From: an uncultured Mycoplasmatota bacterium
Lineage (GTDB): Bacteria > Bacillota_I > Bacilli_A > RF39 > UBA660
NCBI GenBank assembly: GCA_900553395.1
Contig: USDJ01000002.1
Span: forward strand, 66,525-130,524
DNA: 64,000 bases
Reading direction: 5' to 3'
Part shown: piece after piece, positions 6,246 to 62,891 of the stretch
Numbering within the stretch: the first letter of the stretch is position 1
Layout of the letters: the number at the start of each line of letters is the position of its first letter
Notes under the pieces: generated by a model
Seen by the model: the letters and a program-made list of their open reading frames with translations, nothing else
Database searches by the model: none
Told to the model about the DNA's origin: nothing
Program-made: the position numbers and the translations under genes

Positions 6246-6368
6246 TGTATCACCTCTATTTTATTATGTTCATAATATTATAAACTAATCACTAAGACAA
6301 TTATATCATACTTTCTAACTTTTCTAAAAAAAAGATAAAATAAAACTTATATTAATAATAAGTATACA

Positions 6369-6400
6369 AAAAAAGAGAATTTAAAAATCCTCTTTATTAC
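6369..6400 (-). terminator. Weak intrinsic terminator downstream of the YihY-family gene
   Basis: Inverted repeat aaagag/ctcttt with a 12-nt loop and a minus-strand T-run. Confidence 0.3.
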
Positions 6401-6444
6401 CTTTTTAGTAGTCTATGTGTACTCGGTAATTAAGTACATTATTA

Positions 6445-7269
6445 TTATTCACTAATTTCTGGTTTATATTCATAAGCCTTAACATTTATTGCTATACCTA
6501 TAACTAAAATATAAGATATTATATAGACAATAAGCATAAGTATTATAATATTAGACATACTTCCATAAAATAAGTCATAATGAGTAAAATGAGTTACCCA
6601 GTAAGAATATATTTGAATTATAACTATCCAGCAAATAGTAGTAAATGCAGCACCTAAAGTTGTATGCTTACTCATGATTTTCCAGTCTGGCGCTATTGTA
6701 TAAATAAGCTTAACATTAAAGAATATTATAAATATTGAAAATGGCCATTTTAATACCGAGAATATATTTTTGATTAAATTTACTACTGATTTATCTTTTA
6801 TATAAGATAGCGAAAACGATAGCAAATGATTTCCAAATCCTAAGAACACTAGTAAAAACATTAAGGCAAATATAATTAACACTATTAAAAATATTGCTTT
6901 TATTCTTCTTTTTATATAATCAGAATTAGGAAAACCATATAAATTATTACTTGCAAGTATTATAGCATCAGCTCCATTACTTGCTAAATAAAAACCAATT
7001 ATCATAAATATTCCAATATTGCTATCGAAACCTTTTCCATCTATAAAAGCAACTAAAACGTTTGCTACATCTTTAGGTAAAGTTGTATTTATAACATTAA
7101 TTAGTGATCCTATATTAACTCCTAACTCAGATGCTATAACTCCAATAAGTGTTAAAATTGGAAATATAGAAAGCATTAAAAAGAATGCTAAATTTCCAGG
7201 TAAATAAGCCATGCTTGGATTAAAAACTATATTCCATAACTTCTTTACATATGTTTTAATTTTATTCAT
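6445..7269 (-). CDS. YihY/BrkB family inner membrane protein
   Basis: Polytopic membrane protein of about 274 aa with an N-terminus (WNIVFNPSMAYLPGNLAFFLMLSIFP) typical of the YihY/virulence factor BrkB family. Confidence 0.6.
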   Translation of the reverse strand: MNKIKTYVKKLWNIVFNPSMAYLPGNLAFFLMLSIFPILTLIGVIASELGVNIGSLINVINTTLPKDVANVLVAFIDGKGFDSNIGIFMIIGFYLASNGADAIILASNNLYGFPNSDYIKRRIKAIFLIVLIIFALMFLLVFLGFGNHLLSFSLSYIKDKSVVNLIKNIFSVLKWPFSIFIIFFNVKLIYTIAPDWKIMSKHTTLGAAFTTICWIVIIQIYSYWVTHFTHYDLFYGSMSNIIILMLIVYIISYILVIGIAINVKAYEYKPEISE

Positions 7270-7559: not shown

Positions 7560-8834
7560 TTATTTTATTATGTCTAGTATAAGTTTTGGTAAGTTACTAA
7601 GTTCTTCATCAATTTGAAAACAGTCTAATATTTGAGTCATACTTACATCTTTATCTTTTAAATAAACTTTTAGTAACTCTTCATCCTTTTCTACTTTATC
7701 TCCTACTTTTTTATTTAAAACTAAGCCTACTTCATAATCTATTTTATCTTCCAAAGTATTTCTTCCAGCACCTATTAATTTTGCAATTTCACCAAGTGCT
7801 TCAGCATCTATTTTGCTAACATAACCGCTCTTATCACTTTTTATAGAAAAAACTTTATCAGATACCTTTAAGCTTTTTATATCTCCGCCTTGATATTTAA
7901 CAAGTTCTTCAAATTTTTTATATGCCTCTCCATTATTTAATTGCTTAAATAATAAGTTCTTGGCTTCCTCATTTGGTATTTTCTTTACAGCACCTATTAT
8001 TATTGAACATAATGTTATAACAACTTCTAATAAGTCACTTGGCCCATTGCCCTTTAAAGTATCGATAGCTTCTTCTACTTCTAAAGCATTACCTATTGCG
8101 TATCCTAAAGGTTCATCCATATTAGTTATAATACAAATAGTAGGCTTTCTATAGGCTTTTCCTATTTTAACCATTAAATTAGATAGCTTTCTAGCATCGT
8201 CTAAATTTTTAATTAATGCACCACTACCTACTTTTACATCTATTAAAATTATATCAGCACCACTAGCTATTTTTTTAGACATAATACTAGAAGCAATAAG
8301 AGGTATTGAAGATACAGTACCAGTCACATCACGCAAAGCATATATTTTTTTATCGGCTGGAACCAAATTACCAGTTTGTCCTACTAAAGCTATATTTATT
8401 TTATTTACTTGCTCAATAAATTCGTCAATACTAATTTTAGTATTAAATCCTTTAATAGATTCTAATTTATCAATAGTACCGCCAGTATGACCTAGTCCTC
8501 TTCCACTCATCTTAGCTATTTTTATTCCAAGTGATGCTAAGAGTGGTCCTAAAACTAAAGTAACTTTATCACCAACACCACCAGTTGAATGTTTGTCTAC
8601 TATTATTCCATCTATTTTACTTAAGTCAATAACATCACCACTGTGAAGCATTATATCTGTCAAGTCTATTGTTTCACGATCAGACATACCATTTATTACA
8701 ATAGCCATTAAAAGTGAGCTCATCTGATAATCTTTTATGCTACCATCTAAGTATCCATTAACAAAAAATTTAATTTCATCTCTTGTAAGTTCTTCATTTA
8801 ATCTCTTTTTAGTTATTATATCTATTATAGTCAT
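7560..8834 (-). CDS. pdp: Pyrimidine-nucleoside (thymidine) phosphorylase
   Basis: Glycosyltransferase family 3 signature (DKHSTGGVGDK, SGRGLGHTGGTIDKLE) at 424 aa. Confidence 0.85.
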   Translation of the reverse strand: MTIIDIITKKRLNEELTRDEIKFFVNGYLDGSIKDYQMSSLLMAIVINGMSDRETIDLTDIMLHSGDVIDLSKIDGIIVDKHSTGGVGDKVTLVLGPLLASLGIKIAKMSGRGLGHTGGTIDKLESIKGFNTKISIDEFIEQVNKINIALVGQTGNLVPADKKIYALRDVTGTVSSIPLIASSIMSKKIASGADIILIDVKVGSGALIKNLDDARKLSNLMVKIGKAYRKPTICIITNMDEPLGYAIGNALEVEEAIDTLKGNGPSDLLEVVITLCSIIIGAVKKIPNEEAKNLLFKQLNNGEAYKKFEELVKYQGGDIKSLKVSDKVFSIKSDKSGYVSKIDAEALGEIAKLIGAGRNTLEDKIDYEVGLVLNKKVGDKVEKDEELLKVYLKDKDVSMTQILDCFQIDEELSNLPKLILDIIK

Positions 8835-8859
8835 ATTATCACCATACTAATTATAACAC

Positions 8860-8895
8860 AAAATAAAAAAACTGTTAACTATCTCTAACAGTTTT
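8860..8895 (-). terminator. Rho-independent terminator downstream of the nucleotidyltransferase gene (bidirectional geometry)
   Basis: Perfect 8-bp inverted repeat aactgtta/taacagtt at 8870-8893, with a minus-strand T-run from the A-run at 8861-8870. Confidence 0.5.
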
Positions 8896-8918
8896 ATTCT
8901 TTATATTTTAGCTTTTTA

Positions 8919-9695
8919 TTAATCAGCTATTACAAGTAAATAATTTAAACTTTCATCAAATCCTATTTTACTTTCTTTAATAGTTTTATAAAATAGATCA
9001 AGAAGACTATCCATACAACTTTCTAATTCTTCTTTACTTAAGAATTTTGGAATTGTATTATGAATATTAGATAAAAAGCAATCATTTAATTCATTGTAAG
9101 CTTTAAATTCATGCATTTTTTTACCTTCGTTTAAACCTTCTATATTCATCACATTTGTTCTAGCACTATTTAATAATTGATAAGCATATATGTAATTTTC
9201 TCTTTTAATAGCTATTTTAAATTTTCTTACTGAATATAAAAACTCATAGTTAATTTTATCATCTATTCCATAATTAGATTTTTTTTCTTTAAATATCTCA
9301 AGTCCATTTTTTAAATGTTCTCTTAATTTATTACAAGAATCTACACCGACTTTGATTTCAGTTGAACTTATTTTTAAGTCTTTTAATGGACCGAACGATA
9401 TATCAGAACTTAATCCATTTTTTAAATAAATAGATACTCCCCATATTCTATCTGACCACTTTCTTTCAACTAAAGCACCTATTTCATCGTTATTAAAAAA
9501 CGATACAATCTCATCTCTTACTACTTTAGTTTCTACATCATCTTTATATGCCATCATAAAGTCGCAATCCGAATATATATCTTTAAATCCTTTTGATGAG
9601 GATCCTATTAAGTATGTTCCAATTATATTTTCTGATAACTTTACTTTTTCAAGTATGTTGTCAAAAAATAACTTTCTATCTTCAATTTTATACAA
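8919..9695 (-). CDS. Pol-beta superfamily nucleotidyltransferase (ANT(6)/Lnu(B)-like adenylyltransferase architecture; substrate unknown)
   Basis: LIGSSSKGFKDIYSDCDFMMAY is the hG[GS]x9-13DhD nucleotidyltransferase motif; the 258-aa size with a helical C-terminal domain matches the aminoglycoside/lincosamide nucleotidyltransferase layout. It lies 17 nt downstream of the coiled-coil gene. Confidence 0.5.
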   Translation of the reverse strand: MYKIEDRKLFFDNILEKVKLSENIIGTYLIGSSSKGFKDIYSDCDFMMAYKDDVETKVVRDEIVSFFNNDEIGALVERKWSDRIWGVSIYLKNGLSSDISFGPLKDLKISSTEIKVGVDSCNKLREHLKNGLEIFKEKKSNYGIDDKINYEFLYSVRKFKIAIKRENYIYAYQLLNSARTNVMNIEGLNEGKKMHEFKAYNELNDCFLSNIHNTIPKFLSKEELESCMDSLLDLFYKTIKESKIGFDESLNYLLVIAD

Positions 9696-15674: not shown

Positions 15675-16036
15675 AATAATAATATTTTATAAGCCATGTT
15701 CTGTTCTTCAAATGAAGCGACAAATATTTATCTACTGTTACCAGTCCCTGAATCGGTTCTAGTTTCCTATCAGAGTTCCCCTACCAAAATTTGGGTTTCT
15801 CACTTGCGGGGTTTACCACGTTCCACCAAACTCATTTCTGAGTTTTTTCGTCACTTTGGCACTTTTATACCTAATTTAACCATATCTAATGACTTAGGTT
15901 ATTTCGGAGCCGTTAGCTTAAAGCTACCTAGAGTTATTTTTTCCTCTAGCGCAAACACTATAGTCATCACAGACTATGTGAGCATGGACTTTCCTCTACA
16001 TTACTAAGAATGCAGCATTTGTCAAAATATTATTCT
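15675..16036 (-). ncRNA. rnpB: RNase P RNA, bacterial type B
   Basis: The minus strand reads ...GTAGAGGAAAGTCCATGCTCAC...GTGCCAAAGTGACGAA...GGAACGTGGTAAACCCC...GAGAAACCCAAATTTTGGTAGGGGAAC...ACAGAACATGGCTTA. This is near-identical in its conserved blocks to B. subtilis RNase P RNA (P4 halves GGAAAGUCC and ACAUGGCUUA). The P1 helix is formed by AATAATATTTT (16026-16036) and AAAATATTATT (15678-15688). Confidence 0.85.
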
Positions 16037-32423: not shown

Positions 32424-32453
32424 GAACAAAAAAAAGATTATGGAAAATCTTTT
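32424..32453 (-). terminator. Rho-independent terminator immediately after the pilin-LRR gene stop
   Basis: aaaagatt-ttccat-aatctttt hairpin followed by eight T on the minus strand. Confidence 0.55.
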
Positions 32454-34162
32454 TAATTTTCAAATACTATATTTGAATCGCTATAGCCTGTGGCCCAACC
32501 AAATACATTAGTTCCAAAGCTAGTAAAATCAGATTTTGAACTTTTTCCTTTTATCACTACACTAGTAAGTTTATTTTTCAAAAATGCTTCTTTATCTATT
32601 GTTTTAACACTTGATGGAATTTCTACGCTTGTTAATTTATTGCTATAAAATGCATATTGACCTATTGTTGTTACACTAGATGGAATCGTTATACTTGACA
32701 ATTGATTATGTATAAATAAACTACTACTTATTGTAGTTAAACTAGATGGAATCGTTATACTTGTTAGTGAATTTTGATTAAATGCACCTTCACCTATACT
32801 AGTTATAGTATTAGGAAGTGTTATACTAGTTATACTATTTCTAGAAAAAGCATATGTACCTATTGTAGTAACATTACTAGGTAATGTTATATTACTTCTT
32901 TTTGCACCACCATAACTGACTATTGTTTTATTATCTATACTACCATCACTATTTCTCTTATATATAAAAGCCAAATCATCTGGTAATTTATTATTATTAA
33001 AAGATTCCTTTTCTATACTTGTTACACTAGATGCTATTTCTAAGCTTGTTAACTGATTATTTAGGAAAGATCCTCTTCCTATACTAGTAACTCCATTTTC
33101 AATTTTTAAGGTTTCTATTTTATTATTATAAAATGAATAATTAGAGATTTTTTTTATATTTCCTGGAATAGTTACACTTTTAAGCAAATTATCTGATAAA
33201 GCATATATACCCATACTAGTAACACTACTTGGTATTTCAATACTTGTTAATTTGTTATTTCTAAGCATATAAGAATTTATAATTTTTAAATTACTTGGTA
33301 AAGTTATACTAGTAAGATAGTTATTCAAAAATGCTTTACTACCAATATTAGTTATAGTATTAGGTAACTTTATACTTGTTATTTTTTGCGCTTCAAATGC
33401 ACTATTACTTATACTAACAACATTTTTATTATTAAACGTGCTAGGTATTATTACATCATAAAATTCTTTTGTTCCCGTATCTCCACACGTATATTTTACT
33501 ATTTCTATTCCAGCTTTAGTTTCTTTTACATCAAAGCATCTTCTTGGTGTATATATTTCTTCTGGATCTACTTCGTCTGCTATTAAATTTTCATTTTTAT
33601 CATTTATTGGTTTATATGTAACAGTGTATTCTTTACCACCTTTTTCCATAGATCCCTTTATCTTAGTATTATCAGGTTTATAGTATTTTACATCTGGAGA
33701 TTGTATTTCAAATTTTTCATCTATTCCAAATGTACCTTCGTATGTTAAAGAAGCCTCACCCAAATCTTTATTAGAGTATACATAATTTATAACCAGCTTA
33801 TACATATTCGTATACTCTTTTTTACCTATATATAAACTATATCCTTTAACTATACCGTTAACTATAGAAAGTCTTCCACTTTCTATCTTATTATCCTCAA
33901 TAGATACTTTCAGTTGTTCACCATCACAAATAATTATACTATTAGAACTTACTGTACAGCTTTCGGGATCGAATTCATCTTCTAAATTTTTATTCGCTAA
34001 AGTTTTTTCCACTGCATCTATATAAAATTCCACACTTCTTTGATTAGCTTGTTCATTAGAATTATTTATTATTCCTATAACAGCCGGAATAGTTATTAAA
34101 GCTATAATTGCTAATATTATTATTACAGCTAAAAGTTCTATTAAAGTAAATCCTCTTTTCAT
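32453..34162 (-). CDS. Prepilin-type N-terminal cleavage/methylation domain protein fused to a BspA-type leucine-rich repeat domain (pilin-LRR fusion)
   Basis: Class III signal peptide KRGFTLIELLAVIIILAIIALITIP (Gly-Phe cleavage site, Glu+5), a pilin-like head domain and about 12 BspA/LRR_5 repeats (LTSI.IPSSVTSIG..AF..N.). The C-terminal 30 aa are conserved with the paralog at 43403..44827. The GGTGG SD lies 5 nt before the ATG. Confidence 0.75.
   Translation of the reverse strand: MKRGFTLIELLAVIIILAIIALITIPAVIGIINNSNEQANQRSVEFYIDAVEKTLANKNLEDEFDPESCTVSSNSIIICDGEQLKVSIEDNKIESGRLSIVNGIVKGYSLYIGKKEYTNMYKLVINYVYSNKDLGEASLTYEGTFGIDEKFEIQSPDVKYYKPDNTKIKGSMEKGGKEYTVTYKPINDKNENLIADEVDPEEIYTPRRCFDVKETKAGIEIVKYTCGDTGTKEFYDVIIPSTFNNKNVVSISNSAFEAQKITSIKLPNTITNIGSKAFLNNYLTSITLPSNLKIINSYMLRNNKLTSIEIPSSVTSMGIYALSDNLLKSVTIPGNIKKISNYSFYNNKIETLKIENGVTSIGRGSFLNNQLTSLEIASSVTSIEKESFNNNKLPDDLAFIYKRNSDGSIDNKTIVSYGGAKRSNITLPSNVTTIGTYAFSRNSITSITLPNTITSIGEGAFNQNSLTSITIPSSLTTISSSLFIHNQLSSITIPSSVTTIGQYAFYSNKLTSVEIPSSVKTIDKEAFLKNKLTSVVIKGKSSKSDFTSFGTNVFGWATGYSDSNIVFEN
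32540..33410 (-). repeat. Internal tandem coding repeats (about 66-69 nt units) encoding the BspA-type LRR array
   Basis: Recurrent LTSI(E/T)IPSSVTSIG..AF units in the translation. Confidence 0.55.
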
Positions 34163-55012: not shown

Positions 55013-56008
55013 TTATCTTTTTTCAAAACTCATATTTGGCTTTTTTAATAATTTAAGTTGAAAGCCTAATGTATCTTGACTCTCATGATCTAACTGTGAA
55101 TCACTGCCTTCAAAAAAGTGAATATAGTCTAGTGCTGTATATGGAGTTGTATAACTAAAATCATTTGTTTCTTCATAAAATAAGGCGTTTCTAAATGATA
55201 TAGCAAAACCATCTAAGTAGGCTTTTATATTTTCTTCTGTTGCCTCTATATATCCATCACTTAATATTTTCATAGCTACTTCTTTTCTCTTTTCATCCAT
55301 TAACATAGCCTTACCTGCTGATATTCCAGTGAAATGCATAATTCCCAGTCTATCTAAGCAATTATTAGCTAAGAGAAAAAATTGACGATATGAGCAATCT
55401 ACTATATATTTTTTACCATCTATAACTATTATATTAAAGTAATGAAATCTAAGATCATTTGGAAGATTTAGATTTTTTTTAAAACCTGGACTGATTACTA
55501 AACTTTGTGACTTTACAGAATACTTTGAACTTACTTTATTTACTATATTGCTAGCTTCAAAACATAAATTTCTGAGTGGATGAAGCATTAAAGTATTTAA
55601 CAAAACTTCCAAATCACTTGATTGTGTAATGCTAGATGCTAACTCTATTCTTGAATCACGAACGATACATCGTATTATATCTTCACCATCATCTTGTCTG
55701 CTTAAAACATCTAAAGATATTTTGGGATTTGATTCTACTAAAAATATCTTGCTATGATTAATATTTTCAAAACGTGATAATGAACATATTTTACTTTTAA
55801 CATCTGAATAATAATGTACACTAACTCTTGCGTTGCAGAAGTCATTTAATTGAGCATTTAAAGTTTTTATTCTTCTATAAATTAAATTTAAATTTTCACC
55901 AAGAGCAATAATATCATCTGGGTCTGAAGTAGAACCACTTAATTCTTTAAATTCGTCTATATATTTATCTATTTGTTTTAAGCATCTTTTAAATATCACA
56001 AAATTCAC
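55013..56008 (-). CDS. Hypothetical protein, tandem paralog B (conserved C-terminal approximately 155 aa shared with paralog A)
   Basis: Shares the block HYFNI.VI.GKKYIVDCSYRQFFLLA.NCLDRLGIMHFTGISAGKAMLMDEKRKEVAMKILSDGYIEATEENIKAYLDGFAISFRNALFYEETNDFSYTTPYTALDYIHFFEGSDSQLDHES with 56070..57020; the N-terminal halves are divergent. Confidence 0.5.
   Translation of the reverse strand: MNFVIFKRCLKQIDKYIDEFKELSGSTSDPDDIIALGENLNLIYRRIKTLNAQLNDFCNARVSVHYYSDVKSKICSLSRFENINHSKIFLVESNPKISLDVLSRQDDGEDIIRCIVRDSRIELASSITQSSDLEVLLNTLMLHPLRNLCFEASNIVNKVSSKYSVKSQSLVISPGFKKNLNLPNDLRFHYFNIIVIDGKKYIVDCSYRQFFLLANNCLDRLGIMHFTGISAGKAMLMDEKRKEVAMKILSDGYIEATEENIKAYLDGFAISFRNALFYEETNDFSYTTPYTALDYIHFFEGSDSQLDHESQDTLGFQLKLLKKPNMSFEKR
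55021..55480. repeat. Direct repeat copy 1 (3' coding portion of paralog B); perfect 262-bp core at 55081..55342
   Basis: Base-for-base identical to 56138..56399, with near-identical flanks. Confidence 0.8.
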
Positions 56009-56069: not shown

Positions 56070-57020
56070 TTATCTTTTTTCAAAACTCATATTTGGATTT
56101 TTTAATGGTTTAAGTTGAAGACCAAGTGTCTTTTTACTCTCATGATCTAACTGTGAATCACTGCCTTCAAAAAAGTGAATATAGTCTAGTGCTGTATATG
56201 GAGTTGTATAACTAAAATCATTTGTTTCTTCATAAAATAAGGCGTTTCTAAATGATATAGCAAAACCATCTAAGTAGGCTTTTATATTTTCTTCTGTTGC
56301 CTCTATATATCCATCACTTAATATTTTCATAGCTACTTCTTTTCTCTTTTCATCCATTAACATAGCCTTACCTGCTGATATTCCAGTGAAATGCATAATC
56401 CCTAGTCTATCTAAACAATTACTAGCTAAAAGAAAAAATTGGCGATATGAGCAATCTACTATATATTTTTTACCATTTATAACTACTATATTAAAGTAAT
56501 GAAAATTTAATTCACTTGGTATATCCGAATCTTTTTTAAACCCAGGATAAATTATTACACTTTTTGATTTAGCACCCATTAAAAGGCTAACTTCATCTAC
56601 TATATCACTAGCTTTAGAACAACAATCTACTAAAGAACTTTTTACTGTAAATTCATTTAAGGAAATGGATAAATCAGATATAAGTCTTAATCTAGAATAT
56701 TTTATGATACGTTTTATTATTTCACTATTCTCATTTGAAAATACTAAATCATAAGTAAGATTTGGAAACGAATCTATTAAAAATTTGTCTGGGTAAAGAA
56801 AATCTGATAGTTCAAATATTCTTTCGCCTACAGCATCATAATAAAATTTTCTCGTTTTGCCTTTAGAAGTATAATAATATTCTTGTTGATAAGCTTTAAT
56901 TCTTTTATAAAAGTCATTTATTCTTCTTTCAAGTATATCCTCTTCTAAGCAAAAATCTTCTCTTTCAAAATCCATCATACATTTGTCTATTTTTCTCAAA
57001 TATTTTTGTTCTATCATCAC
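56070..57020 (-). CDS. Hypothetical protein, tandem paralog A
   Basis: See paralog B; same length class and same strand, with a 61-nt spacer. Confidence 0.5.
   Translation of the reverse strand: MMIEQKYLRKIDKCMMDFEREDFCLEEDILERRINDFYKRIKAYQQEYYYTSKGKTRKFYYDAVGERIFELSDFLYPDKFLIDSFPNLTYDLVFSNENSEIIKRIIKYSRLRLISDLSISLNEFTVKSSLVDCCSKASDIVDEVSLLMGAKSKSVIIYPGFKKDSDIPSELNFHYFNIVVINGKKYIVDCSYRQFFLLASNCLDRLGIMHFTGISAGKAMLMDEKRKEVAMKILSDGYIEATEENIKAYLDGFAISFRNALFYEETNDFSYTTPYTALDYIHFFEGSDSQLDHESKKTLGLQLKPLKNPNMSFEKR
56078..56537. repeat. Direct repeat copy 2 (3' coding portion of paralog A); perfect 262-bp core at 56138..56399
   Basis: Offset is exactly 1057 bp from copy 1. Confidence 0.8.
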
Positions 57021-57073: not shown

Positions 57074-59212
57074 TTAAATTAAGTTTGTCCTAACCGAATT
57101 TACACCTATATCATAGTAATTATCTTTTAATGCTCTTTTTTTATAGTTATATATGTGCATAAAATTATTCTTAACAACAATTTTATATTTGTTATTAAAT
57201 CTATCTATCAAATATCCAGATTTAGTATTATATTTTTTTAGCAAGTTGTATTTGCACACCATAACTTGTTCATATCCATCAGTTATAACCTCTAAATTAG
57301 GCCTTTTATTATATCTTTTTATATAAGTTTCAATTAAAAATTTAATTTGCTTATAATTTAACTCATAAGATAATGTTATCTTATTAACTCCTATACTGTG
57401 TAAAAAAGCAACTGAATAAGAATTAAATACATTAAGTGAGAAATCAGAATCTACATTTTTATATTTAAAAACACTTCCTATATCTCCAACTAATAAATTA
57501 GTATTATTAAATTCTTTTAAATGTTCATTAACTGTATCTAATTTAAAATAGGCTTTATCTGATTTTATTTTACTAAATACATTATAATCATCAATATATA
57601 TTATGTCATAACAGTCTTTATACTTTTCATATTCCTCATAAGATTCTAGCAAAATAGATTTTTTTTGTTCTTTTTTATAATCTTTTAAATCTATATGATA
57701 TTCTTCTTTTATGTATTCATTTTTATATATTCTTTTTTCATCTAATTCTTTTATGGCGTTTCTTCTTAATTCATTTATTACGTTCATTGGAATAAATGAA
57801 TTATCATCTATAGTTATATTTAATTTGTCAAAAGTATATATTGAAGATCCTAGCTTATTTAATTTAGATAGTATATCATCTTTTGTAACAGAACATTTTT
57901 CTGATACTTGAACTTTTATATCACTATATTTTTCAACTTTATTTTTTCCATCTGTAATAGATAATTTTACATAATTACCTATTTTCATTTCACATATACC
58001 ACTTATTTTGATTTTTTTATTTACAGACATTTTTTCTTTCAATATTTTTAATTGAAGATTATCTGTTGTCTTTACTACTTTGGCTCCCTTTTCTGCATTT
58101 TTTACATAAAGTGATATAATGTCTCCTTTTTTGGCACTCTTTATTTTTGGATTATTAGAAATACTAGTCACTGTCATTCCATAATCTTCTTTTCCTATTA
58201 TTCTAATTCCATCGCCTATATTTAAATCATCTTCAAGTAATATTGTAGCTATATTATTCTTACTCTTTATAACTTTTCCTAAAACTGTACCCATATGATT
58301 AGGTCTAAATGTATTAGTAAAATTATCATTTTTTTCATTAAATAAAAAACCTTTAGTAAATTCTCTATTAAAAACTTTTTTTAATTCCAATATATCTTCT
58401 TCTGTTATATTAGTTTTCTTATATTTAACATAATTATCTATTGCTTTTCTATATAGACTAGTAACTAAATATACATACTCTGGCCTTTTCATTCTTCCTT
58501 CTATTTTAAAGCTATCAACACCTATATCTATTAGTTTACCTATATTACTTAAAGTATTTAGATCTTTAGTACTCAATAAATATTTATTTTTTTCAACTAA
58601 ATTATTATCGATTTCAAGACTATACATTTGTCTACAGCATTGAGCACATGTTCCTCTATTGCCACTTCTAGAACCTATTAGGGCACTCATTAAACATTCT
58701 CCAGAATAACTTTGACAAAGCGCTCCATGTACAAAAATTTCTATTTCTACCTTTGAATTTTTCTTTATTTCTTCAACTAATTCTATAGGAGTTTCACGAG
58801 CTAAAACAGCTCTTTTAATTCCTATGCTTTCACAGAATTTTACGCCTTCCAAATTATGAATATGAAGCTGTGTTGATGCGTGAATCTCTAACTTAGGATA
58901 AGTTTTTCTAACTAGGTCAATCATGCCTATATCTTGCATAATTAATGCATCAACATCGTTTCTATATAAAAAGTCAACATATTCTAAAAGCTTTTCTACT
59001 TCTATATCATAAATTAGTGTATTAATCGTTACATATACTTTTACTCCAAATAAATGACTAGTTTTAATAGCCCATATTATTTCGTCACGAGAAAAATTTG
59101 AAGCAAAACTCCTAGCTCCAAAATTTTTACCAGATAAATAAACTGCATCACATCCTGCGTTTATAGCAGGCATTAATGTTTCTACACTTCCTACTGGAGA
59201 TAATAATTCCAT
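57074..59212 (-). CDS. Peptidase U32 family protein, long form with a C-terminal extension
   Basis: MELLSPVGSVETLMPAINAGCDAVYLSG N-terminus and a conserved E-x-F-x-H-G-A-L-C block (EIFVHGALCQSYSGEC); 712 aa. Confidence 0.8.
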   Translation of the reverse strand: MELLSPVGSVETLMPAINAGCDAVYLSGKNFGARSFASNFSRDEIIWAIKTSHLFGVKVYVTINTLIYDIEVEKLLEYVDFLYRNDVDALIMQDIGMIDLVRKTYPKLEIHASTQLHIHNLEGVKFCESIGIKRAVLARETPIELVEEIKKNSKVEIEIFVHGALCQSYSGECLMSALIGSRSGNRGTCAQCCRQMYSLEIDNNLVEKNKYLLSTKDLNTLSNIGKLIDIGVDSFKIEGRMKRPEYVYLVTSLYRKAIDNYVKYKKTNITEEDILELKKVFNREFTKGFLFNEKNDNFTNTFRPNHMGTVLGKVIKSKNNIATILLEDDLNIGDGIRIIGKEDYGMTVTSISNNPKIKSAKKGDIISLYVKNAEKGAKVVKTTDNLQLKILKEKMSVNKKIKISGICEMKIGNYVKLSITDGKNKVEKYSDIKVQVSEKCSVTKDDILSKLNKLGSSIYTFDKLNITIDDNSFIPMNVINELRRNAIKELDEKRIYKNEYIKEEYHIDLKDYKKEQKKSILLESYEEYEKYKDCYDIIYIDDYNVFSKIKSDKAYFKLDTVNEHLKEFNNTNLLVGDIGSVFKYKNVDSDFSLNVFNSYSVAFLHSIGVNKITLSYELNYKQIKFLIETYIKRYNKRPNLEVITDGYEQVMVCKYNLLKKYNTKSGYLIDRFNNKYKIVVKNNFMHIYNYKKRALKDNYYDIGVNSVRTNLI

Positions 59213-59220
59213 ACAAACAC

Positions 59221-60225
59221 CTAATTCTTCTCTTTTTTCTTATTTAAATATTCTTCGTAATTAAATCGATCTAATAAATCAGCTTTACTTATCTTAAATC
59301 TCTTCTTAAACACACTTTCATTAAGAAATAATAGAAATGCATTTTCTTCGTTTATTTCTATTCCAATATTATTCAAATAATAATATCTAGCAAAAGAAAG
59401 CTCAACACTTTGAATAAGATATTTTGGAACTTTTACTATGACATTTAATATTCCAAATTCTCTATATAAATTTAATTTATCATTAGTATTTTCTATAGTT
59501 GAACCTAGTATTACCGGAAACTCTAACACAATACGCCTAGCATCTTCCACCTTGAAGCCGAATGTCAATAGATTATTAAATCTATCATTAATTTTAGACA
59601 TTAATAAAGATAGTAGTTGTGGATAAATGGAACACATTTCTATTACTTCTTCATTTGTAAATCCTAACAAACAAATATCTTTTATTCTTTTTTTAACTTT
59701 ATTTTGGGATAGGTTTATGATTGATGGTAATTTTTTTATGATTTTTAATGCCTGATTTTTACTGAACCCTAAAGATACTATGTCATCTATTCTCTTTGAA
59801 ATATAACTAATATCAGAACCTAATATTTGAGGAAATTTCTTAATAATTTTTAAAACCTCATTATAAGTTAATTTTAACGTCATCATATCTTTAATCTTAT
59901 TTAAAGACGTAGCATATGGATGTTTTAAGATGTGTGGATTAGCAAGTATCATCTTTTTTATTTCACTTTCAGTAAATCCTAATTCTCTATAATCACCAAT
60001 TCTACTTAACAAAGTAATAATTGAATACGAAAAAAGTCCTGGTACTACTCTAGTTATTTTTATAATTTGTTTTTGTGTATATCCTAATGAACTAAAAAAA
60101 TTATAATTAGTTTCTAATTTAGATTTTAGAGTATCATTATCATAACTGAGTAGTGCATAATCATTTACAATTTTTACCGCTATATCTTCGCTATAGCCTA
60201 AGCTCATTAAATAATTAACTGCCAT
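59221..60225 (-). CDS. mTERF-like repeat protein (about 8 repeats of the L..LGFS...I.KI....P.LL motif)
   Basis: Periodic approximately 32-36 aa units: YLMSLGYSEDIAVKIVNDYALL, FFSSLGYTQKQIIKITRVVPGLF, LGFTESEIKKMILANPHIL, LGFSKNQALKIIKKLPSII, LGFTNEEVIEMCSIYPQLL, FGFKVEDARRIVLEFPVIL. Confidence 0.5.
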   Translation of the reverse strand: MAVNYLMSLGYSEDIAVKIVNDYALLSYDNDTLKSKLETNYNFFSSLGYTQKQIIKITRVVPGLFSYSIITLLSRIGDYRELGFTESEIKKMILANPHILKHPYATSLNKIKDMMTLKLTYNEVLKIIKKFPQILGSDISYISKRIDDIVSLGFSKNQALKIIKKLPSIINLSQNKVKKRIKDICLLGFTNEEVIEMCSIYPQLLSLLMSKINDRFNNLLTFGFKVEDARRIVLEFPVILGSTIENTNDKLNLYREFGILNVIVKVPKYLIQSVELSFARYYYLNNIGIEINEENAFLLFLNESVFKKRFKISKADLLDRFNYEEYLNKKKEKN

Positions 60226-60608
60226 TAATCTATTACTCCCATGCTTATTAAACCTATAATATCATCAATTTCCATTCCGTTTTTTCGTTTTTCTAAAATA
60301 AATTCATCTATATCATCAGCATCTTCATTAAGTAAAAGAGGATTACTATCAAAAGTAATGTCTAATCTTTTTATTCCAAGTAATTTAAGCTTTTGTATAA
60401 GTTCTAAAACACTATCAAATATTCTATTTAAATAAATAGGATTAGTAGTTATAATATTTCTAATAATTTTATCACTACATCCTACACTTCTTAAAAGATC
60501 TATTAAATTAATTACTTCACTATTTGATAAGTATTCTAGTTCTGGATTTTCTTCTAGCATTTCTTTAATTTCTTCTGTTGATATATTAACATTTAAAAGT
60601 TCTAACAT
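60225..60608 (-). CDS. Small mTERF-like repeat protein (3 repeats), translationally coupled to the downstream larger one (TAATG overlap)
   Basis: LLRSVGCSDKIIRNIITTNPIYL and LLGIKRLDITFDSNPLLL units; the stop TAA overlaps the ATG of 59221..60225. Confidence 0.45.
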   Translation of the reverse strand: MLELLNVNISTEEIKEMLEENPELEYLSNSEVINLIDLLRSVGCSDKIIRNIITTNPIYLNRIFDSVLELIQKLKLLGIKRLDITFDSNPLLLNEDADDIDEFILEKRKNGMEIDDIIGLISMGVID

Positions 60609-60642
60609 ATAACCACCACATTAATTGTATCACATAATCTTT

Positions 60643-61491
60643 TTATTCCAAAATATTTTCTTCTAATGACGCTATATTATAACCTTTTGATTTTATATAA
60701 ATTATAATTGATGATAATTCTTTTTTAACTTCTGAATTAACGCTTAAAGATAGTATACTACCAGAATTTAATTTATCTTTTATATCTACTAACGGGGTAT
60801 TATCACTTATTTTTATTGGTTTAACAGTGAAGGATTTTTTTAATTTACATTGTTCTAAATTGCTACTAGAATTATTTGTGTTATAGCAAAAATTTACACT
60901 TTGATTATTAACTTTTCTTAAAACAATGTCCATCCATTCAAAATTAGGATCGCTATAATCATCAAATAATGGAGAAACTGTATGGAATGATTTTACCATT
61001 TTATCAACTAAATTATTGTTTTCCTTAAACCAATCAAATTCCACAAAAAAAGTCGCTTTTACATTATAATTATCAATTATATTTAATACTTTATCAATAT
61101 TATCTCCACTTTTTACTAAAAAAACTAAGCTTACCATTCTCTTTTCACTATTACCTTGAACTATATATTTATCTAAATTATCATTTATACTTATATTAGG
61201 TACAATATAATCATAAATATATAGTTTATCACTATAATATCCATTTTTTTTCATGTTTTTATAACTTTTTGATATATTAACTTCTCTACCTCTTATACCT
61301 GGTGTTATAGTATCACCATCTATAGTAGCGTCTATTGGACTCATTTTGTATTCATCTTTATTTTCATTTATCTTTGTCATTATTTCATCCATATTATTTA
61401 TAACTATAGCAGTTTTTTCCGTAATAAAAAAACTAAAACAAGTCAAACTAATTAGGCCTATCATTTGGAATATTTTTTTCAACATTATCAC
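60643..61491 (-). CDS. Membrane-anchored NodB-homology (polysaccharide deacetylase-like) protein, catalytic motifs degenerate
   Basis: N-terminal TM; VKATFFVEFDW beta-strand and downstream H-containing segment resemble the NodB fold, but the canonical TFDDG and H-x-x-x-H-P motifs are absent. Confidence 0.35.
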   Translation of the reverse strand: MIMLKKIFQMIGLISLTCFSFFITEKTAIVINNMDEIMTKINENKDEYKMSPIDATIDGDTITPGIRGREVNISKSYKNMKKNGYYSDKLYIYDYIVPNISINDNLDKYIVQGNSEKRMVSLVFLVKSGDNIDKVLNIIDNYNVKATFFVEFDWFKENNNLVDKMVKSFHTVSPLFDDYSDPNFEWMDIVLRKVNNQSVNFCYNTNNSSSNLEQCKLKKSFTVKPIKISDNTPLVDIKDKLNSGSILSLSVNSEVKKELSSIIIYIKSKGYNIASLEENILE

Positions 61492-62675: not shown

Positions 62676-62891
62676 ATGTATAATAACTATCAAATTCCAA
62701 CAAATTTTACAAATGGAAACAATTCTAGATTCGTAGGCGGTGGATTTTTAGGCCCATTTTTATTAGGTGGTATCACAGGAGGTCTTGTCTCTCCACTATT
62801 TTATGGCGGTTATAATAGGCCTTATTACTACAACAATTACTATTATCCAACATATCAGCCATATCCATATTATTATACTAGACCATATTAA
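62676..62891 (+). CDS. Small Gly/Tyr-rich protein (71 aa), possible spore coat/crust-type protein
   Basis: Strong RBS AAAGGAG 8 nt upstream; composition GGGFLGPFLLGGITGG then PYYYNNYYYPTYQPYPYYYTRPY; own terminator. Confidence 0.5.
   Translation: MYNNYQIPTNFTNGNNSRFVGGGFLGPFLLGGITGGLVSPLFYGGYNRPYYYNNYYYPTYQPYPYYYTRPY

Follow-up and report, generated by a model that had tools for sequence, protein, structure and literature searches.

The family of mitochondrial transcription termination factors (mTERFs) is stated to be absent from prokaryotes, including in a 2026 plant paper (PMC12977773; bioRxiv 10.1101/2022.01.18.476766). A gene pair of an uncultured Mycoplasmatota bacterium (GenBank assembly GCA_900553395.1, contig USDJ01000002.1) raises the question of whether proteins of this family could be encoded and used in a bacterial genome, and of what a large basic and a small acidic protein of this kind could do together. 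The pair lies in a stretch of 64,000 nucleotides of this contig (hereinafter the window, meaning the whole stretch of DNA analyzed). An initial annotation had placed two open reading frames (ORFs) there, overlapping as TAATG, and this is borne out by the sequence, in which both are on the minus strand:

59221..60225, minus strand: large mTERF-fold gene of the prokaryotic mTERF-like (pTERF) type, ORF of 334 amino acids (aa)
60225..60608, minus strand: small mTERF-like gene, ORF of 127 aa
60223..60227, minus strand: TAATG junction of the small-gene stop and the large-gene start, by direct reading of the sequence

The large protein as a member of the mTERF family

The 334-aa protein is clearly a member of the mTERF family. 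It scores 137.2 bits against PF02536 (E 7.6e-40; Pfam cut-off 23.1), and a search of the PDB with this one sequence reaches MTERF1, MTERF3 and MTERF4 at E-values of 1e-5 to 1e-3. A profile of 25 members of the large family (A1) matches MTERF1 in the PDB at E 1.8e-24 and is collinear with it over profile positions 38-311. Pfam matches to UBA, RuvA_C and DUF3173 were rejected as spurious, spanning only 15-20 residues of single repeat helices.

The AlphaFold2 (AF2) model of the large protein (predicted local distance difference test (pLDDT) 96.0, predicted template modeling score (pTM) 0.85) consists of eight units of helix, short helix and helix at 35-residue steps, followed by a helical C-terminal cap. 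In a Foldseek search of the PDB, the top 17 matches of this model are all mTERFs, among them DNA-bound MTERF1 (E 1e-10, template modeling (TM) score 0.63-0.65, 328 columns), MTERF3, MTERF4 and the Tetrahymena mitoribosomal mTERF protein mS93. The initial annotation had described tandem mTERF-like repeats in both proteins and proposed a profile search and structure prediction of the solenoid. The repeats are present, with a period of 35 and 8 units in the 334-aa protein and 3.5 units in the AF2 model of the 127-aa protein. Among repeat families, both models match the mTERFs alone (MTERF1, MTERF3 and MTERF4); a TPR- or HEAT-like assignment, named beforehand as the outcome speaking against the mTERF fold, did not occur.

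The repeats are strictly spaced. Self-comparison of the large protein yields 56 identities at a shift of 35 against 12-28 at the other shifts from 28 to 43, and 35 is likewise the best period in 6/6 other family members tested. The consensus of 244 ungapped repeats from 65 large proteins is DLIsLGYTKEEVIKMTKxLPxLYGYSIENIKQKIE, where Gly6, Tyr/Phe7 and Pro20 hardly vary. Position 33 is occupied by Lys or Arg in 100% of the 244 repeats and position 14 by Lys in 78%, while positions 18 and 21, both flanking Pro20, are the most variable ones, family-wide as well as inside single proteins. Judged from the sequence, such a pattern could suit a scaffold that contacts phosphates and has a few positions to set specificity. 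The large protein is basic (isoelectric point (pI) 9.33, net charge +12), as is its family (median pI 9.0, net +8), and this charge together with the conserved Lys/Arg at repeat positions 14 and 33 gives indirect support for nucleic-acid binding.

The mean column identity of the large family is 33%. Conservation among the large proteins is highest in the C-terminal cap (Q272, S273, A279, R280, L299, F300, F306), which carries the conserved motif LIQSVELSFARYYYL...LLF...F.KRF. The protein begins directly with a repeat helix and is encoded on a Bacillota chromosome, being neither nuclear-encoded nor organelle-targeted. Nuclear encoding and organelle targeting describe where the mTERF family occurs and are not a property of the fold.

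Proteins of this kind were found in a screen for DNA-binding tandem-repeat proteins, in which the name 'pTERF' was given to prokaryotic mTERF-like proteins (Nucleic Acids Res 2024;52:10464; PMC11417379). One of them, pTERF1 (MBQ3414883.1; identifier TR_35_C32_2, period 35), from a 'Clostridia bacterium' metagenome-assembled genome (MAG) of the ruminant gut, binds the double-stranded DNA (dsDNA) ACTNNNAGTC with a dissociation constant (Kd) of 1.87 nM, as studied by electrophoretic mobility shift assay, biolayer interferometry and a green fluorescent protein reporter. Another, pTERF2, also binds dsDNA sequence-specifically with nanomolar affinity and recognizes a motif other than the one bound by pTERF1. 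About 46 homologues with 3-11 units were reported, all from MAGs and mostly from Bacillota, and pTERFs may be reprogrammable according to the authors (PMC11417379). The name pTERF was not found in the other literature searched. The mTERF-like kind is thus already known, and the locus is not a new class. The large protein of the window is filed as pTERF-type because the period of 35, the mTERF annotation and the kind of source organism all match, pTERF1 being compared by description only.

The small acidic protein and its pairing with the large gene

The 127-aa protein has the same fold. On PF02536 it scores 21.7 bits, just under the cut-off of 23.1, and this family is matched by 20/21 members of the small family (best E 3e-10). 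The small-family profile matches MTERF1 at E 5.4e-10, and its alignment to the large family by hhalign has a probability of 97.6%. The AF2 model (pLDDT 95.9, pTM 0.88) contains three units and the first helix of a fourth, and its top 17 Foldseek matches are all mTERFs, with query TM scores (TMq) of up to 0.81. The mTERF fold suggested from the letters for the gene pair is thereby supported for both products.

The charges of the two proteins are complementary. The small protein has a pI of 4.24 and a net charge of -14, and the medians of its family are the same (4.24, -14). The family consists of proteins of 126-137 aa, forms 230 clusters in a word-indexed database, none of them named, and has a mean column identity of 51-57%. 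Its signatures are Cys44, NIIxxNPxYLxR, LNLLFDSNPxLLNKDxFEI and an acidic tail. Relative to the locus L052 (loci are designated here by L numbers), the small gene has a rate of nonsynonymous substitution (dN) of 0.19, and the large gene one of 0.37. The ratio of nonsynonymous to synonymous rates (dN/dS), calculated against an 85-89% identical relative, is 0.16 and 0.20, respectively, and both genes are under purifying selection.

At the junction, one base is common to the TAA of the small ORF (60227-60225) and the ATG of the large ORF (60225-60223). The same -1 junction is found in L005, L010, L011 and L017. This one-base overlap is an arrangement typical of translational coupling. The adjacency is obligate from the side of the small gene: all 23 small genes (23/23) in the loci collected with the large protein directly adjoin a large gene of the same strand or overlap with it, on either side, and so do the small genes of 4/4 distinct lineages in the loci collected with the small protein, which gives 27/27 in total.

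Some homologues have 440-500 aa, which is near 127 + 334, and the large gene of one locus (L006) is frameshifted. The pair could, on these grounds, be an artefact in which a frameshift or an error of assembly has cut one longer mTERF gene in two. This explanation is extremely improbable. The small protein forms a family of its own with a uniform length, its gene evolves under the low dN/dS given above, and the junction recurs in independent assemblies. The hidden Markov model of the small family gives 142-177 bits on the small genes at newly fetched loci and up to 191.5 bits elsewhere, but <=56 bits on any long protein. No long protein therefore scores as a small-type domain, no fused small-large form exists in the data, and a split or fused gene was rejected. 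The large gene of L006 itself (1340-2303; close relative, one Logan assembly) is interrupted across three frames, with the small gene beside it intact; this is either a pseudogene or an assembly error.

The mechanism we favor, and hold to be fairly probable, is one in which the large protein, as a solenoid of the pTERF/MTERF1 type, binds dsDNA sequence-specifically, and the small acidic mini-mTERF is its co-translated partner, a common adaptor or a modulator of DNA binding. By analogy with human MTERF1, pTERF1 and pTERF2, the 334-aa solenoid would most likely bind dsDNA sequence-specifically along its repeat surface. Human MTERF1 is a mitochondrial transcription terminator and polar roadblock, and the same analogy suggests that the cellular role of the bacterial protein could be that of a roadblock, a terminator or a regulator. 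The 127-aa protein would most likely be made together with the large protein and bind it, and would be too acidic for binding nucleic acid alone. The docking site is probably the C-terminal cap with the lysine-rich tail common to all large paralogues, the cap being proposed as the partner surface because it is the most conserved part among otherwise divergent paralogues. In such a complex, the small protein could act as the common adaptor, or could modulate or inhibit DNA binding.

Several points weigh against this mechanism. Some eukaryotic mTERFs, several in number, bind RNA and not DNA. In about one third of the complete loci, the large gene has no adjoining small gene; these are notably single-copy genes in the rpoC-smc / M / ABC-F synteny. 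Finally, pTERF1 has no conserved proline (PMC11417379), whereas proline is 93% conserved in the repeats considered here.

Genomic distribution, arrays and neighboring genes

When 1.84 billion cluster representatives were scanned exhaustively with HMMER, 1326 clusters were obtained at E <= 1e-3, including 92 at E <= 1e-30. Among the best 150 of the 1326 clusters (50% identity), about 139 are of low-GC bacterial type and 11 are long, GARP-rich and probably eukaryotic. The bacterial mTERF family is therefore much larger than the approximately 46 members reported. Bacterial mTERFs had been called rare and uncharacterized in the initial annotation. The first word does not hold for gut metagenomes, and the second had been overtaken in 2024, when pTERF was named and dsDNA binding was demonstrated for two members (PMC11417379).

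Species representatives of GTDB were scanned with a trimmed alignment (A2) as the query, a scan with the single protein having found nothing. The scan produced 41 loci, almost all labeled as MAGs from gut samples (rabbit, goat, deer, mouse, human), including the RGIG ruminant MAGs; most labels are 'Bacilli', 'Clostridia' or 'Tenericutes'. The GC content is 21-31% in all loci but one. Six loci with 23-27% GC (L028, L031, L036, L037, L045, L046) are binned as Muribaculaceae, Paratractidigestivibacter, Sphaerochaetaceae or Oscillospiraceae; these contigs are probably mis-binned, since their GC content is like that of the 'Bacilli' contigs. The sole locus of 42.5% GC (L034, in a Nanosyncoccus bin) carries a pTERF fragment at the contig end.

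Exact look-up in a 15-billion-protein collection did not find the large proteins of the window, L015, L019, L022 and L025, nor any of ten large proteins from RGIG MAGs. The small and the U32 proteins of the window are present in this collection. The large protein of the window has no precomputed Pfam match on its contigs, and some homologues have one. This suggests that repeat proteins are under-represented there.

Across the loci, large genes are single or form tandem arrays of up to nine. The MAG RGIG8542 (water deer caecum) contains nine large paralogues in an unbroken array continuing past both ends of the available sequence (L019 1-9374) and two more on another contig (L025 1-2485), so that the genome total is at least 11. 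A mention of an acidic mini-mTERF partner was not found in the literature searched. In the paper on pTERF, genomic context is not analyzed, and it makes no mention of an acidic small partner, of tandem arrays or of a motif in the C-terminal cap (PMC11417379). The small acidic family, its constant adjacency to a large gene and the tandem arrays of large genes appear to be unreported.

The arrays allow a broader proposal, which we consider unlikely. According to it, a low-GC gut Bacillota clade would possess a two-component, diversifiable system of DNA recognition, in which arrays of pTERFs with one acidic mini-mTERF subunit would exert genome-wide control of termination or act as roadblocks. 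The specificity of each paralogue would be set by the hypervariable positions flanking the repeat proline. If true, this would be a bacterial counterpart of the organellar mTERFs, a system that is still said in the plant and animal literature to be absent from prokaryotes, and it could even be the evolutionary source of that system or its sink.

The genes flanking the arrays are housekeeping ones and depend on the lineage. The following arrangements and neighbors were recorded:

rubrerythrin / array / pheS-pheT, at 7 loci
array / hisS-aspS
argS upstream of the array
rpoC-smc / M / ABC-F
SpoU methylase with rimM and trmD
rpsP and khpA upstream, with uppS, cdsA and rseP between them and the array
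rny, recJ and relA as neighboring genes

One locus differs from this housekeeping context. In L004 (3761-10885), the homologue P0005 stands beside genes with PIN_8-sigma70_r4, DNA methylase, NOV_C, MazG-like, DpnII/MboI and SLFN-like helicase domains, surroundings that look like a defence or mobile island. These surroundings, the tandem arrays with at least 11 paralogues in one MAG and the hypervariable positions within near-identical repeats could be explained by a diversifying family for defence, action against mobile elements or host interaction, whose variable DNA-binder arrays would be directed against foreign DNA or whose members would serve as effectors. Such a role is distinctly unlikely. 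PADLOC gave no family at E <= 0.01 for the pair, for the U32 protein or for the two paralogues downstream of U32, and a known anti-phage defence system was rejected on this ground. The 50,697 phage records and the 72,556 plasmid records searched with tblastn gave no match, no relative was present in IMG/VR, and PHROG gave one weak match only, to a 20-residue stretch; a phage or plasmid origin was thus rejected as well. Synteny with housekeeping genes is stable at most loci, and the N-termini begin with a repeat helix, unlike signal peptides (as judged by eye, without a predictor).

A second family of small proteins (115-151 aa), with no annotation and no Pfam match, was observed directly beside pTERF arrays in four lineages labeled 'Clostridia' (L008 1958-2413, L013 about 6279-6730, L014 and L023). 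In L008, a further copy of about 115 aa is located just 3' of the small gene (8793-9191).

In the window, the pair is surrounded by the following features:

57074..59212, minus strand: U32-family gene (Peptidase_U32 + DUF3656), 712 aa, Pfam 292 bits, downstream neighbor
60613-60617, minus strand: GGTGG ribosome-binding site of the small gene
60624..60651, minus strand: promoter-like element TTGGAA-16 nt-(TG)TACAAT from a consensus scan, a consensus match only

The promoter-like element, which reaches into the end of the deacetylase gene upstream, is located 15 nt before the small gene's ATG. Both its hexamers and a TGTG extension (TTGGAA-16 nt-TGTGnTAcAAT) are kept in relatives whose small proteins are 89% and 71% identical to that of the window. 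At the other end, the stop codon of the large ORF (59223-59221) is separated from the U32 ATG at 59212 by a gap of 8 nt (59213-59220), and the AGGTG ribosome-binding site of the U32 gene overlaps this stop codon. No minus-strand terminator-like site was found between 62624 and 55007. Because of the short gap, the overlapping ribosome-binding site and the lack of a terminator, the U32 gene is probably co-transcribed with the mTERF pair in this genome. The operon suggested in the initial annotation from the 8-nt gap, which is read directly from the sequence, is to this extent physically plausible. A functional link does not follow: adjacency of the U32 gene is confined to the window genome's close relatives (L005, L006, L049-L052), and the other sampled lineages differ. 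Since the adjacency is lineage-specific, no function can be deduced from this neighbor, and U32 was rejected as a functional partner.

The same evidence bears on an explanation in which the pair, together with the U32 enzyme, would bind RNA or take part in ribosome biogenesis. The U32-family members RlhA and TrhP are RNA hydroxylases, and MTERF4 recruits the methyltransferase NSUN4 to rRNA, which would be the precedent for such a role. The best NCBIfam match of the U32 protein is TrhP (243 bits, under the TrhP cut-off of 534), its gene follows the pair as described above, arrays elsewhere often lie beside genes of RNA metabolism and translation (SpoU methylase-rimM-trmD, pheST, hisS-aspS, argS, rny), and MTERF3, MTERF4 and mS93 are among the structural matches. 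We nevertheless regard this explanation as improbable. Apart from the limited occurrence of the U32 adjacency, the neighbors are generic housekeeping genes that vary by lineage, one to nine fast-diverging paralogues with hypervariable repeat positions do not suit a conserved rRNA target, and both tested pTERFs bind dsDNA (PMC11417379).

The window has a GC content of 26.7%. Two RNA features, both pointing to a Bacillota origin of the window, were located in it:

15685-16030, minus strand: RNase P RNA class B, 303 bits
13131-13197, minus strand: ribosomal protein L21 leader

The window also encodes PFOR, a class A PBP, PFL, LigA and a PASTA kinase. Two BspA-type leucine-rich repeat (LRR_5) proteins are encoded at 32453-34162 and 43403-44827 (both on the minus strand), and one of them has an N-terminal prepilin-type methylation motif. 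Two tandem paralogous ORFs of 331 and 316 aa (55013-56008 and 56070-57020, minus strand), situated directly downstream of the U32 gene, have an overall identity of 59%. Their C-terminal parts of about 150 residues are nearly identical and their N-terminal halves far more divergent, a mosaic pattern which suggests gene conversion. No match to these paralogues was found in Pfam, NCBIfam, PHROG, PADLOC or the PDB. An ORF of 71 aa (62676-62891, plus strand), divergent from an M29 peptidase gene, is rich in Tyr, Gly, Pro and Asn (MYNNYQIPTNFTNGNN...YYYPTYQPYPYYYTRPY) and has no Pfam match; an ORF of similar size occupies the equivalent position in L005, L049 and L052.

Comparison with known systems

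A bacterial mTERF family that is collinear with MTERF1 at the profile level, organized in arrays and accompanied by an acidic mini-mTERF partner bears on the origin of the organellar mTERF family. The pair could provide a concrete two-protein system for how mTERF-type solenoids are regulated, and the family is a possible platform for programmable DNA binders.

The TALE, BurrH (BAT) and STAR proteins are comparable in that they, too, are bacterial proteins built from tandem repeats of some 33-35 residues, the units being near-identical and varying at few positions. TALE and BurrH, unlike the proteins considered here, belong to another fold family: their Foldseek matches have E-values of 1.1e-3 and 6.8e-3 and TM scores of 0.30-0.36, and no Pfam TALE match was obtained. 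We know of no one-repeat-one-base code for pTERF.

The MTERF4-NSUN4 complex (4FP9/4FZV) resembles the locus as a case of an mTERF protein acting via a partner, the pair in the window being followed by the gene of a putative RNA-modifying U32 enzyme. The conserved partner here is, unlike NSUN4, a smaller mTERF-fold protein and not an enzyme, and the U32 adjacency is not conserved. The structural match to MTERF4 also ranks under those to MTERF1 and MTERF3 (E 7e-6, TM 0.42).

Plant mTERFs, with about 30 paralogues per genome, show a similar lineage-specific expansion serving a small AT-rich genome. They are nuclear-encoded and organelle-targeted, whereas the proteins described here are encoded and used in one bacterial genome, in tandem, operon-like arrays.

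With the pTERFs, the large protein shares its origin from a gut Bacillota MAG, the tandem 35-residue mTERF-annotated units and the AF2-predicted solenoid of three-helix repeats. No obvious similarity to eukaryotic mTERFs is described in the pTERF paper (PMC11417379), in contrast to the profile match to MTERF1 obtained here.

Human MTERF1 (3MVA/3MVB) is similar in its full-length collinear profile and in its basic helical-repeat superhelix, superimposed at the TM scores given above. It differs from the window protein, to which it is about 20% identical, in that the latter is bacterial, has no targeting peptide and keeps a strict period of 35. The window protein is further distinguished from MTERF1 by a separate small partner and by the many paralogues found in its relatives.

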